From Promethearchaeota archaeon (GTDB taxonomy: Archaea; Asgardarchaeota; Hermodarchaeia; Hermodarchaeales; Hermodarchaeaceae), in NCBI GenBank assembly GCA_048939245.1, contig JBHLPR010000055.1, forward strand, positions 1 through 14,804: a DNA stretch of 14,804 nucleotides, in the 5' to 3' direction. A program made the position numbers and the translations under genes. How positions within the stretch are numbered: position 1 is the stretch's first letter; every line of letters begins with the position of its first letter. The notes beneath the pieces were generated by a model. That model was not told where the DNA came from and made no database searches. It saw only the letters and a list, made by a program, of their open reading frames with translations. Below are positions 1 to 9,333 of this stretch, in pieces.

Positions 1-762
1 TTGTTGCTGACGTTGGATTCGATGATTAATTTTTCGCGGGAGTATTTGCCGACGTCTCGGGGTGGTTCGATGGATACACCGTTGGTGTTGAGTGTGTCGA
101 TAACGCCGAAAGAGATTGATGATGAGGCGCATAATATTGATGGAAGTGGGATTTACCCGTTGGAATTTTATGAGCGAGCTAGACAGTTTGCGGATCCGAA
201 GGATGTTGAGGATATTTTTGATTTGGTGGCGCATCGCATCGTCGATCATCGAATTGATTCGACGGCTGAATCTTATGGGTTGGAATTCTCTCATCCAACT
301 TCTGATGTTAATTATGGTCCTCGTGTAACCACTTATACAAAATTGCAGACAATGGAAGAAAAAGTAGACCGACAATTAGCGCTAGGTAAACGGATTGCCG
401 CTGTCGATATTCAGGATATGGCTCGACGATTGCTTGATTCACACTTTCTCCCTGACATTTTTGGGAATATTCGCGCATTTTCAACTCAAAAATTTCGGTG
501 TACAAGTTGTAATGAAAAATTCCGGCGTATCCCATTATCTGGGAAATGCTCTGTGTGCTCAGGAAACCTTGTTTTAACCGTCACCAAAGCAGGAATCACC
601 AAGTATGTAGAATTAGCTGCTAAGATTGTTGAGGAATATCATCTACCCTTGTACTATCGACAACGACTTGACATGGCAAAAACTGTTATCGATTCTTTGT
701 TTTCCGTTGAGAAGGATAAACAACAACAGACATTGAAGCAATTTACGCCTACGAATCCGTGA
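1..762 (+). CDS. polC: DNA polymerase D (PolII) large subunit DP2, C-terminal part (5'-truncated by window edge)
   Basis: Translation shows DP2 C-terminal signatures: NFSREYLP..RGGSMDTPLVL, HFLPDIFGNIRAFSTQKFRC, zinc finger CTSC...RRIPLSGKCSVC-GNLVLTV, and a PIP-like tail QQTLKQF. The TTG at position 1 is not the real start. Confidence 0.96.
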   Translation: MLLTLDSMINFSREYLPTSRGGSMDTPLVLSVSITPKEIDDEAHNIDGSGIYPLEFYERARQFADPKDVEDIFDLVAHRIVDHRIDSTAESYGLEFSHPTSDVNYGPRVTTYTKLQTMEEKVDRQLALGKRIAAVDIQDMARRLLDSHFLPDIFGNIRAFSTQKFRCTSCNEKFRRIPLSGKCSVCSGNLVLTVTKAGITKYVELAAKIVEEYHLPLYYRQRLDMAKTVIDSLFSVEKDKQQQTLKQFTPTNP

Positions 763-3461: not shown

Positions 3462-4505
3462 ATGCAAAACCCATTTACCGATTTCCAGCTCATTAAATCT
3501 CGAAATATCGCTATTCGTGCGGGGCAAAAACGTTTACTTTTTGATCCCATTAGAGTCCCACATCGATGGCACACGCCTAATACAACTATCTGTATCTCCC
3601 ACGCCCATTCCGACCATATCGCCGGATTCAAAACCAATATTCCTAAAATCGCCACTCCCGAAACTTTGGAAATCTACAAATCCCTCACTGGAATACCCAA
3701 GAAGGTTCACGCGATTCGACCAGGAGAAAACTTCGCATTAAGTGATGGAGGGACAATCGCGCTTCATTCAGCTGGGCATATGCTGGGGGCTGCCCAATTT
3801 GTGTTGGAACGAAATGGAGCAAGACTCGTGTATACAGGGGATTTCAATCTCCAATCCTCGTTGACAGCAAAAGGGGCTAAACCGATTCCTTGTGATATTC
3901 TTTTAATGGAAGCAACTTATGGACGTCCGGACGCGATTTTTCCACCACGTGAACAAGTCTATACCGAAATTGCCGATTGGACCAGTCAGGAGCTAAGAAA
4001 AGGTAAAATCCCCGCATTTCGCGTTTATGCTACTGGGAAAGCCCAAGAACTCATTCGTATTATCAATACCTATCTTACAGTTCCTGTCGTCGTTGAACCC
4101 CCCATCGCCAAAATCAGTAATGTATACCAACAGTATCAAATTCCCTTAAACTTCTTCAACGCACGGTCAAATGAAGGAAGAGAGATAATGCGTCAGGGTG
4201 AGTACGTTTTTCTCACATCTGAACCCCTTCCTCCGAGGCGATCACATTTTGGTCATAAGATGTCTCGCGCAGTAGCTACTGGTTGGGCAAGAATCTTTCC
4301 AATGAAAAAATTTGATAAATCATTTATCTTATCCGCCCATGCTGACTTTCATCAACTCGTTGAATATGTGACGAACGCGCAACCACAGGCTGTTCATCTT
4401 ACTTGTGGTAACATAGTAACTTTCGGAGCGGTTCTTGAGAAATTAAATATCAAGCAAATCATGCCTAAGGCTCGCTCTCAATTACAACTTTCTGATTTCC
4501 TTTAG
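3462..4505 (+). CDS. MBL-fold beta-CASP nuclease (ORF track starts at GTG 3408; ATG 3462 preferred)
   Basis: SHAHSDH (HxHxDH), AGHMLGA, YTGDF, MEATYG, YATGKAQE, ATGW and SAHADF motifs. C-terminus is QLQLSDFL. Confidence 0.9.
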   Translation: MQNPFTDFQLIKSRNIAIRAGQKRLLFDPIRVPHRWHTPNTTICISHAHSDHIAGFKTNIPKIATPETLEIYKSLTGIPKKVHAIRPGENFALSDGGTIALHSAGHMLGAAQFVLERNGARLVYTGDFNLQSSLTAKGAKPIPCDILLMEATYGRPDAIFPPREQVYTEIADWTSQELRKGKIPAFRVYATGKAQELIRIINTYLTVPVVVEPPIAKISNVYQQYQIPLNFFNARSNEGREIMRQGEYVFLTSEPLPPRRSHFGHKMSRAVATGWARIFPMKKFDKSFILSAHADFHQLVEYVTNAQPQAVHLTCGNIVTFGAVLEKLNIKQIMPKARSQLQLSDFL

Positions 4506-5783: not shown

Positions 5784-5825
5784 ACCTCCATGTTAATTGA
5801 ACAATCCTTTCAAATAACATATAAA
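5784..5825 (-). promoter_or_regulatory. TATA box and Shine-Dalgarno site of HD gene
   Basis: Minus strand TTTATATG (5818-5825) and GGAGGT (5784-5789), with spacing compatible with a short leader. Confidence 0.55.
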
Positions 5826-5848
5826 CCTGCTGCTGAAACTGCTCTCTA

Positions 5849-6232
5849 TTAGCCTAAACGCGCCTCTTCTTCATCAGCAGCCTCCATTTTCAAAACAACC
5901 GAACGAACCGCAGACAACACCGCTCCCACTTCTCCTTCATGTTCACGCGACAAAAATAAATTCACCACCACAATTCCCCCTAACTGCTGCGCTGCAATAT
6001 CTGCGATAGCCCGCGTCTCAGCTTGAAACCGCGTTCCCACAACACACGAAGTCGCCACTGGGGATACCTCACTAAACGGACTCGGAACCCCCACCGCAAT
6101 TGTACCAAACCGATACTCCCCATCACTCACCAATATCAACGATCCATTCGCTAACCGACTGACCGCTACCGCTATCTTAAGTTCGCCAACTTTTACCAAT
6201 TCTTCCATAAACTCTAATTCCAAATTAATCAC
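5849..6232 (-). CDS. Small hypothetical protein, proteasome assembly chaperone 4 (PAC4/PSMG4)-like
   Basis: 127-aa ORF filling the gap between porB and the HD gene. Candidate TATA CTATATAG at 6269-6276. The pattern V.RL....L.VS.....G..AV........PVATS...G........A...A......V.V resembles PSMG4 by eye (alignment from memory, not computed). Confidence 0.6.
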   Translation of the reverse strand: MINLELEFMEELVKVGELKIAVAVSRLANGSLILVSDGEYRFGTIAVGVPSPFSEVSPVATSCVVGTRFQAETRAIADIAAQQLGGIVVVNLFLSREHEGEVGAVLSAVRSVVLKMEAADEEEARLG

Positions 6233-6279
6233 CGCTCAATAATCGAATATGCAGTGAGAACTTACACCCTATATAGATA

Positions 6280-7194
6280 CTAACATCCCACGCGCTTCTT
6301 AAGAATCTCCCACTCCCGTGTAATACCCCGCTCAAACTCCTTCACTCGCTCTGGATCCTTGATAAGTGTACGGAACCGCCCCTGTGGCTTCAAATACTCC
6401 ATCAACGGCTTTCGCTCAATTTTCCCTTCAGCAATCCGCTTACTCCGACCTAAAAACCGCCACTCATCACCCTCCTTTTCCCACATAATCCACACACCAG
6501 TTTCCACCGCTAATTTACCCATTTTCACCGTGTCCCACGTCAAATACCGCCAACCCGTCGGACACATCGCATGAATCTCAATAAAGCGTGTTCCCACAAT
6601 TTCCTTCACCTTCGAATACGTCTCATACACCAACCGTGGATAAGCTGCTGAAATCGACGCTGTATACGGAATTCCATGCTCTGCCATAATCCGTGCAAAC
6701 GGCTTCCGATGCTGCAACTTCCCCGTCGGCGTCGTCGTTGAAAACGAACCATACGGTGTGGCCCCAGAACGCTGCATCCCAGTGTTCCCGTATGCTTCGT
6801 TATTGTAGCAAGTGAAGATGAAGTTGGTTTGGCGCTCAGCAGCACCGCTGAGGGCTTGGATACCAATATCGTAGGTTCCGCCGTCGCCAGCCCAGGCCAT
6901 GAGATTGATTTCTTTGTCTTTGCCCATGTATTTGAGTCCTGCAGCGATTCCGGAGGCTGCTGCGCCTGCGGTCATGAAGGCGGTATTTAGAACTGGTAAG
7001 CGGAGGCTATTTTTGGGGTAGAGTCCTTGGATGACGGACATGCAGCAGGCAGGAACTGTAAGGATGGTGTTGTCACCTAAGGCTTTGAGTGCGTGGCGGA
7101 TGGCGATGGTTGCGCCGCATCCTGCGCAAGCGGCGTGGCCTAGTTCGATGTATTCTTCTCTGGGTAAATCTTTGATTGCTACCATCTTCATCAC
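6280..7194 (-). CDS. porB: Pyruvate/2-ketoisovalerate:ferredoxin oxidoreductase beta subunit (TPP-binding); start may be the ATG at 7191 or 7185
   Basis: GHAACAGCG, PACC, GDGGTYDIG...YNNEAYGNTGMQRSGATP and CPTGW motifs. Overlaps the porA stop (GTGA). Confidence 0.93.
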   Translation of the reverse strand: MMKMVAIKDLPREEYIELGHAACAGCGATIAIRHALKALGDNTILTVPACCMSVIQGLYPKNSLRLPVLNTAFMTAGAAASGIAAGLKYMGKDKEINLMAWAGDGGTYDIGIQALSGAAERQTNFIFTCYNNEAYGNTGMQRSGATPYGSFSTTTPTGKLQHRKPFARIMAEHGIPYTASISAAYPRLVYETYSKVKEIVGTRFIEIHAMCPTGWRYLTWDTVKMGKLAVETGVWIMWEKEGDEWRFLGRSKRIAEGKIERKPLMEYLKPQGRFRTLIKDPERVKEFERGITREWEILKKRVGC

Positions 7195-8378
7195 CTTTTT
7201 AATCCATAGAATATGTCGGGTCTCGCTTCTCCTTTGTCTGCAACATCAAATCCGATTTTGAATAATTTCTTAATATCTGTATATCTTACGTCTCGACCTC
7301 CGAGTCCGGCTATGACCCCTTGAACAGGTATGGTTTGACCGCCACGGTAGAGGGCTGACCGGATTTCGGTGGCAGCTCCTCCGAGGTGTCCATATGAGAG
7401 ACTTCGGTCGACGACAACAAAGGCTTTGGCTTTCCTTGCTAAGGCTTGGATTTGTTCAGCTGGGAATGGTCGGAAGACGCGGAGTCGTGCAGATCCAGCC
7501 GCTATGCCTTCGTTTCGAAGTTCGTCAACAGCAAGTTGGGCTTCTTCCCCCAAAGTTCCTAGCGCAATGAGGACAACCTCAGCATTATCGCAATGGTATC
7601 TGTCAATAAATTGGCCATGGTCACGTCCGAAATGTTTCTTGAAATCTGCTTCAACTTTCGGGATTAGTTTTCGTGCGGCTTCAAAACCTTCATGGATTGC
7701 ATAACTAAGCTCGTAATAATATTCGGGACCTGCAATGTTTCCGGTTGCCATCGGATCTTTGGGATCTAATTTCCAGTGGCCTGCTTCATAGGATGGGAGA
7801 AAGTCAGTAATTTCGTCGTGTTCATAGACCTCAATTGAAGTGAACGTATGGCTGAGAATGTAAGCATCTAAAGCTACCATTCCAGGAAGCAGGACTTTAG
7901 GATCTTCACATAATCGAAAGAGCATTAGGACAGTATCATAGACTTCCTGATTATTCGATGCATACAGTTGAATCCAGCCAGTATCACGTTGTGACATAGT
8001 ATCTGTATGGTCAGACCAGATATTCCATGGGGGTCCAAGAGAACGATTGACAACTGGCATAACGATAGGTAAACGTGAACGACCTGCCCAGTGAAGCATC
8101 TCATGCATCAAGGCTAAGCCATGAGACGAAGTAGCAGTGAATGTCCGGAGTCCTAAGGCTGAAGCTCCTATACACGCTGCCATCGCACTGTGTTCTGACT
8201 CAACACGCACATATTCAGATTTCAGCTCTCCGTTCTCCACGAATTCAGCGATTTTTTCTACAATCGTTGTTTGTGGGGTAATCGGATATGCCGCAATAAC
8301 TGCGGGAATAGCTGTTCGTGCTGCCCAAGATGCAGAATGATTCCCTGTTACAGATACAATTTTTGACATCCTCTTCAC
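7191..8378 (-). CDS. porA: Pyruvate/2-ketoisovalerate:ferredoxin oxidoreductase alpha subunit (likely start ATG 8369)
   Basis: AAYPITPQT, VESEHSAMAACIGAS, TATSSHGLALMHE, RDTGWIQL, RVFRPFP and GLGGRD motifs. Confidence 0.94.
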   Translation of the reverse strand: MKRMSKIVSVTGNHSASWAARTAIPAVIAAYPITPQTTIVEKIAEFVENGELKSEYVRVESEHSAMAACIGASALGLRTFTATSSHGLALMHEMLHWAGRSRLPIVMPVVNRSLGPPWNIWSDHTDTMSQRDTGWIQLYASNNQEVYDTVLMLFRLCEDPKVLLPGMVALDAYILSHTFTSIEVYEHDEITDFLPSYEAGHWKLDPKDPMATGNIAGPEYYYELSYAIHEGFEAARKLIPKVEADFKKHFGRDHGQFIDRYHCDNAEVVLIALGTLGEEAQLAVDELRNEGIAAGSARLRVFRPFPAEQIQALARKAKAFVVVDRSLSYGHLGGAATEIRSALYRGGQTIPVQGVIAGLGGRDVRYTDIKKLFKIGFDVADKGEARPDIFYGLKR

Positions 8379-8687: not shown

Positions 8688-9262
8688 AATGAATACCCCA
8701 TATTGAGTTCATTATAAGCGCGTTGGGCTGCTTCAACATTGATTTCTACGACTTTCTCAGGAAGCCCCTCTAAGCCCTTTCGAATCGCCTTCTTCACACT
8801 TTCAATCGAAGCAATATTTGTAGCCCTCACAACTGCTCCTAACATGATGGTGTTAACTACGGCGATTCCAGCAACTAAAATCCCCTCGTCTAAAGCAATT
8901 TTTGTGGCATCTACAGTAGATATTTTTGCTTTTACAGGTAATTTGATTTCTCCTGGTAATCGCGGTGTGTTGACAACTAAAAATGTCCCATCTTTGAGAC
9001 CTGCTTTAACATTAGGGTTATCGAGCAAAGTTTCATCCAAAACGACGATAGCCTCAGGCTCATAGATATAACTGTGGATACGGATTGTTTCATCAGCTAT
9101 TCGAGTGAACGCCATAACAGGAGCACCACGTCTTTCTGCGCCATAATGGGCAAAGGCTTGAAAGTGTTTGTCTTCTAAACGCGTTGCACCACCAAGGATC
9201 TTAGCGCCTGTTACGGCTCCTTGACCACCTCGTCCATGAAAACGTATCTCAAAGAGAGTCAT
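8684..9262 (-). CDS. porG: 2-oxoacid:ferredoxin oxidoreductase gamma subunit
   Basis: EIRFHGRGGQGAVT, YGAERRGAPVMAFTRI, VDATKIA and NTIMLGA motifs. Confidence 0.94.
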   Translation of the reverse strand: MTLFEIRFHGRGGQGAVTGAKILGGATRLEDKHFQAFAHYGAERRGAPVMAFTRIADETIRIHSYIYEPEAIVVLDETLLDNPNVKAGLKDGTFLVVNTPRLPGEIKLPVKAKISTVDATKIALDEGILVAGIAVVNTIMLGAVVRATNIASIESVKKAIRKGLEGLPEKVVEINVEAAQRAYNELNMGYSL

Positions 9263-9333
9263 CGTGTATTCCGTCCAAATTAGATATCGTTACAGAATGT
9301 CATTCATCTAAAAAGGATTATGAAACACTAGTT

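Follow-up and report, generated by a model that had tools for sequence, protein, structure and literature searches.

Within the porB gene of a sediment Asgard archaeon, the composition of synonymous sites reverses abruptly at a single point. We regard this switch as most probably the strand-polarised scar of homing-type break repair, a reading in which we infer the cleavage, the exact cut and the renewed strand. Since the switch coincides with sites that homing elements attack, a lasting cut-and-repair scar is the most likely explanation, and not a replication origin.

The composition switch in porB and its counterparts in the genome

The window (the whole stretch of 14,804 nucleotides analysed here) is contig C58 of G000, the 2.5 Mb genome of this archaeon, for which Ca. 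Hermodarchaeota (Asgard archaea) are the closest named relatives. The porB gene of the window (6280..7194, minus strand) is intact and encodes the 304-aa beta subunit of a 2-oxoacid:ferredoxin oxidoreductase (PF02775). On the coding strand, the third bases of the 160 codons in 6301-6780 comprise G84 T45 A26 C5 and those of the 120 codons in 6781-7140 comprise C65 A28 T20 G7, with G42/C2 and C33/G1, respectively, at 4-fold sites. A recount reproduced exactly these wobble-base numbers of a preliminary description, as well as its 25 C versus 5 G in 5881-5940, and the sharp flip that it had placed at ~6781-6790 was recovered as a change point at 6788 (-10/+11; 90% interval ~6778-6799). This is the strongest switch in the genome (LLR 83.6; z 12.8; shuffles without any peak of at least 5). 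The interval 6778..6799 includes the junction between N137 and T138 (6784/6783), which is the intein site of homologues and is unoccupied in the window.

According to an HMM, the left arm spans 5858-6787 and is C-rich on the plus strand and G-rich on the minus strand; it covers the 3' half of porB, the spacer and a 127-aa ORF (5849..6232, minus strand) that is conserved across the family and has no Pfam match. The right arm (6790-7482), G-rich on the plus strand, covers the 5' part of porB and the 3' end of porA (7191..8378, minus strand), with a weaker tail to ~7900. Both arms fade outward over ~1 kb. The left side had been described as C/A-rich and the right side as G/T-rich; the G-versus-C component of this bias holds and the keto component does not, since A and T are about equally frequent at 4-fold sites.

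Comparison of orthologues, as had been suggested, revealed a switch of the same polarity and of varying strength at codons 131-158 in 18/18 Hermodarchaeia genomes holding this porB. It is absent in other families (0/12 genomes). Moreover, in both G000 and G008, a paralogue of porB has its switch at the same motif. The earlier proposal of a fixed site and a local, repair-type process is supported.

Scoring synonymous sites relative to genome-wide usage, we found 49 C-to-G steps with a z of at least 5 in the genome and none in shuffles. At an LLR of at least 20 there were 29 C-to-G switches versus 2 of opposite polarity, which bears out the surmise of a genome-wide system. The signal previously noted at ~3700 stayed under the genome-wide threshold and is not conserved in 17 alleles. 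[quoted passage not shown] Across the genome, strong switches coincide with intein borders and cassette borders, and the arms end where homology ends. No element was found at many strong switches (L11, HdrA, small GTPases, RadA, SecY, H+-PPase, thioredoxin); L11 showed no insert among longer homologues and no duplicated fragments in 18 loci, and HdrA is uninterrupted in 19 genomes.

Inteins and endonuclease cassettes at the switch points

The intein lies at N137/T138, with T at +1, in 38 of 47 intein-bearing porB homologues, and the porB switch is within ~10 nt of this junction. The same junction holds the intein of a porB homologue in the Asgard genome G021. No intein was found in ~27 Hermodarchaeia porB alleles, including that of this genome, and the window's own allele has neither intein nor cassette at porB. 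One further porB homologue (G036:C127:47993-48943, L032) is seemingly circularly permuted, residues 138-291 preceding 8-126 in a 326-aa frame, at the same junction.

In G000, switches lie 4-9 nt from the points where the two MCM inteins and the PolB intein start (switch versus border: 8573 vs 8568, 6749 vs 6753, 9578 vs 9569; chance ~0.0008 each). The intein bodies are neutral, and the G-rich arms begin at the C-extein. Furthermore, G011 carries a different MCM intein at another site and has switches at both its borders. The inteins of DP2, the large subunit of PolD, are mosaics in eight genomes: the C-rich arm spans the shared N-terminal part and ends where alternative C-terminal cassettes start, two alleles agreeing at 95% up to that point and at 40% beyond it. 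These mosaics suggest intein-versus-intein displacement. The signal that had been noticed at the window start is real and belongs to this separate site, as the G-rich right arm (1..282, plus strand) starting at the DP2 C-extein. Since arms start and stop at intein and cassette borders, we take them to be the homologous flanks of an inserted or swapped piece.

The first 77 bp of the window (positions 1-77) coincide with the end of contig C81; DP2 therefore spans both contigs, with its intein on C81. The DP2 inteins (L254-L259; G000 C81:40563-42180) have exchangeable C-terminal endonuclease cassettes and end in Q or N without the usual H. The empty DP2 alleles of G012, G017 and G018 (L261, L263, L264) carry Ala in place of Cys at +1, a residue that should keep the intein out.

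Little or no skew was seen at the occupied intein sites of atpA, rpoA2 and a radical SAM gene. Most other Asgard mcm genes have none, and it is present in those of G029 and G043. Six foreign intein-bearing porB genes likewise have no skew; therefore, homing alone is insufficient and a lineage factor is needed.

At porB itself, allele L323/L324 consists of a porB gene with a diverged, replaced 3' part, followed by a 676-aa HTH-LAGLIDADG gene and then by a stranded porB fragment of codons ~181-235 (score 173 versus a shuffle maximum of 46), which are single copy in the window (6490..6654, minus strand). This allele is C-rich up to the motif (3G:56C ahead of it, 19:14 after it) and neutral in the replaced part as well as over most of the endonuclease gene; G-richness returns at the second LAGLIDADG motif and extends across the stranded fragment. 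The L323 fragment starts near codon 181, ~130 nt 3' of the switch, and the cassette's cut site is not pinned to the switch. The LAGLIDADG domain of L323 has a fold predicted with a pLDDT of 91, invariant aspartates in both LAGLIDADG motifs and matches to I-DmoI, TliVMA and I-SceI; the best match to its fold is WhiA, a LAGLIDADG protein that does not cut.

Behind porB, the spacer of G017 contains codons 135-147 twice in decayed form (matched by 0/1000 shuffles of this spacer), a relic that is not above chance over a 3.6 kb search, and a long DNA alignment of this spacer with porB was not significant. The spacer was also considered as an RNA and discarded, having no Rfam match, a folding z of -0.7 and a single copy. 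In G001 (L084:3938-6127), a 730-aa phospholipase D-like gene lies between porB and the 127-aa ORF, with no stranded porB fragment. No porB was found in viral contigs.

Codons 134-162 of porB (6709..6795, minus strand) form a dimorphic haplotype block, the window being of type M (A134, M140, S151, T158) and other alleles of type Q (S134, Q140, A151, I158); the two types also differ at 161-162. Type Q is one clade in codons 126-170 and also, weakly supported, in 171-304, whereas such a clade is rejected on porA (AU p=2e-7); on porB 1-125 alone, the test is not significant (p=0.15). The 3' haplotype beginning at the switch is in conflict with the porA tree.

The HTH-LAGLIDADG family occurs in 14/19 genomes at variable spots, its members being 28-45% alike and showing no intein domains. 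Its genes adjoin duplicated gene ends at a trm112-like gene in G000 and at two more loci in relatives. The actin cassette of G000 (C68:1306-3679) comprises a LAGLIDADG gene, a 148-aa partner and two stranded copies of actin's last 18 codons; the duplication starts at 3679 and the switch lies 4 nt away, at 3675. Several cassette loci have little or no skew. In the window the spacer upstream of porG (9256..9311) is empty; in G005 it is occupied by an HTH-LAGLIDADG gene and in G006 by a relic of it. No skew surrounds this gene, which is probably not the porB cutter. More duplicated gene ends with small genes between them were observed at G000 C55:7844-10101, C87:8517-11068 and C19:15766-20050.

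Base spectrum, proposed mechanism and alternative explanations

On the G-rich strand of 47 strong tracts, bases rank G>>A=T>C, with odds of ~5 for G/A, 2-3 for T/C, ~1 for T/A and 8-10 for G/C, and the bias has no neighbour context. Genes were predicted with a custom caller, which makes errors at some genes within skewed tracts, and these counts are limited to high-scoring genes. The arms have an elevated GC3. On the por tree, the G-rich strand has more A>G and C>T than the respective complementary changes (2.4 vs 0.8 and 3.4 vs 1.9), G>A and T>C fall below controls, and there is no rise in the mean rate; these estimates are time-averaged and constrain transversions poorly. Synonymous divergence is 0.17-0.23 in the arms versus 0.13-0.27 in controls.

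We propose that the porB site is a homing hot spot, where selfish LAGLIDADG endonucleases would repeatedly cut the conserved TPP-binding motif. The cutters would sit in inteins and, in Hermodarchaeia, also in free-standing cassettes that replace the 3' ends of genes, and every break would be mended from another allele. In the homologous flanks one strand would be renewed, namely that running 5'-3' away from the cut, which is the G-rich strand, and the repair of this lineage would prefer G over A/T over C on it. Many rounds would bring silent sites within ~1 kb near saturation, mirror-wise, while non-homologous inserts would stay neutral.

As to the biasing step, G:T, G:G and G:A mismatches are stable, whereas C:A, C:C and C:T are not. 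We give just short of an even chance to a mismatch-type-dependent resolution of the donor/recipient heteroduplex, and hardly less to an error-prone resynthesis of one strand by a fill-in polymerase erring towards G. The divergence data do not separate the two; since the insert bodies are neutral and not GC-enriched and the back-rates are lowered, we lean to heteroduplex resolution. Stated in full, and held tentatively, the process may be a strand-polarised biased gene conversion in Hermodarchaeia and a few other Asgard archaea, in which heteroduplexes at homing breaks would be resolved by pair stability with G favoured on the donor-derived strand. Such a drive would bring silent sites near saturation without extra mutation, and composition would map past and present homing sites, including those where rival endonuclease cassettes displace each other inside inteins. 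EndoMS/NucS, whose gene is present, was rejected as the source: its published preference (G/T, G/G, T/T; PMC4838380) would favour T over A too, unlike the observed spectrum.

Nuclease-free recombination hot spots could leave a similar trace if exchange with diverged relatives began at the most conserved motifs, with the same strand-biased repair, and homing elements merely picked the same motifs. The switch positions shared by paralogues, the many switch motifs without a known element, the lack of a common DNA motif and the mosaic porB region would fit. However, we consider this explanation unlikely, as the switches match several different intein borders and cassette duplication points exactly, porB itself has a cassette and relics, and most motifs of equal conservation have no switch. 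Still less probable is damage of single-stranded DNA exposed around a fixed site, be it by deamination alone (C>T and A>G), which the preliminary description had put forward, or with a translesion polymerase taking part, even though both changes are in excess over their complements on the G-rich strand and a DinB-type polymerase gene is present. A model raising only these two changes is rejected (chi2 169 and 921), with 36-41% T predicted by transitions alone at 4-fold sites and 15-24% observed; the missing neighbour context, the lowered G>A and T>C and the unraised mean rate also speak against it. Furthermore, on the left side of a break, 5' resection leaves the forward strand as the single-stranded tail (PMC7615360); here that would be the C-rich strand, so that deamination of the tails would predict the opposite sign.

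A bidirectional origin, or dispersed and non-canonical initiation sites, had likewise been suggested, and the dozens of sites would suit the latter. The GC-skew switch of a replication origin has the same polarity as the porB switch. Hermodarchaeia switches differ from it in numbering dozens per genome, in their intragenic rather than intergenic position and in arms that, instead of spanning replichores, reach only ~1 kb, are interrupted by inserts and end at intein and cassette borders. The proposed search for a shared motif gave nothing above chance over 36 switch points (k-mers, dyads, folding), and no hairpin either; the three weak ORB-like matches are at chance level, none of them near 6785. 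The cdc6 genes lie on C81, C22 and C91, two of these loci having no switch and the nearby switch of the third ending at an intein border. Origins are thus hardly credible as a cause, and we attach next to no weight to an assembly chimera, two foreign halves or codon selection. The 3' half of porB does move between Hermodarchaeia lineages, but its 5' and 3' halves have the same relatives, which disposes of a recombinant of two foreign origins. A chimera is contradicted by contigs of four studies that bridge the switch point, one of them without any difference, and by the same switch in 18/18 genomes. Codon selection is at odds with a bias that tracks position rather than coding strand and decays inside genes.

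Relation to known systems

Prior descriptions exist for homing, for co-conversion (PMC2988022), for WHO elements and for break-flanking asymmetry. Judged from its sequence, allele L323/L324 has a WHO-like layout, with a predicted endonuclease gene between an intact host gene and a stranded 3' fragment. The WHO elements found in yeasts of the genera Torulaspora and Lachancea (Coughlan et al., 2020; PMC7282813) resemble the Hermodarchaeia cassettes in the free-standing LAGLIDADG gene behind a host gene, the replaced 3' end, the stranded 3' fragments and the discordant trees of 5' and 3' gene parts. The Hermodarchaeia cassettes differ in being archaeal, in carrying HTH domains rather than a zinc finger, in having many target genes per genome and in that their cutting is predicted; moreover, no strand-skew footprint of WHO elements appears in the parts of that publication considered here. 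WHO-type fragments start just 3' of the cut; the G017 relic starts from codon 135 and the L323 fragment from ~181.

Intein and intron homing with co-conversion and the free-standing homing endonucleases of T4 (PMC2988022) have in common with our case a cut in a conserved motif, repair from a donor and exchange of flanking markers, and the porB switch is a common intein site. In contrast, a compositional scar of homing was not found in the literature searched, and it is lacking in the six foreign porB genes and most other Asgard mcm genes mentioned above. At human meiotic break hot spots, the flanks of 1-2 kb carry mirror-image asymmetries of C>N and A>N changes, C>G and A>G among them, which amount to a slight excess of rare variants attributed to damage in resected single-stranded DNA, with APOBEC/CpG context (Hinch et al., 2023; PMC7615360). 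Mirror-image strand asymmetry is thus shared, whereas the Hermodarchaeia scar is near-saturating, context-free and, as we infer, of opposite polarity. GC-biased gene conversion is a fixation bias near recombination sites. The GC3 rise in the arms resembles it, but the Hermodarchaeia bias is strand-polarised, in that G is favoured on the very strand on which C is disfavoured. In the literature searched, no near-saturating scar of G over C with such polarity was described.

A scar of this kind would provide a sequence-only readout of recurrent double-strand break sites and repair tract lengths in an uncultured Asgard lineage, predict target sites of candidate homing endonucleases and imply that Hermodarchaeia lineages often exchange alleles. 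A local flip of GC skew in these genomes should not be equated with an origin, and marker genes close to switches (mcm, polB, DP2, radA, secY, L11) can have distorted codon usage and yield distorted trees. At the switch points of L11 (codon 16; L140-L157) and of the HdrA motif (L158-L187), we observed a dimorphism of serine codon class, AGY versus TCN, which possibly represents an escape from cleavage.
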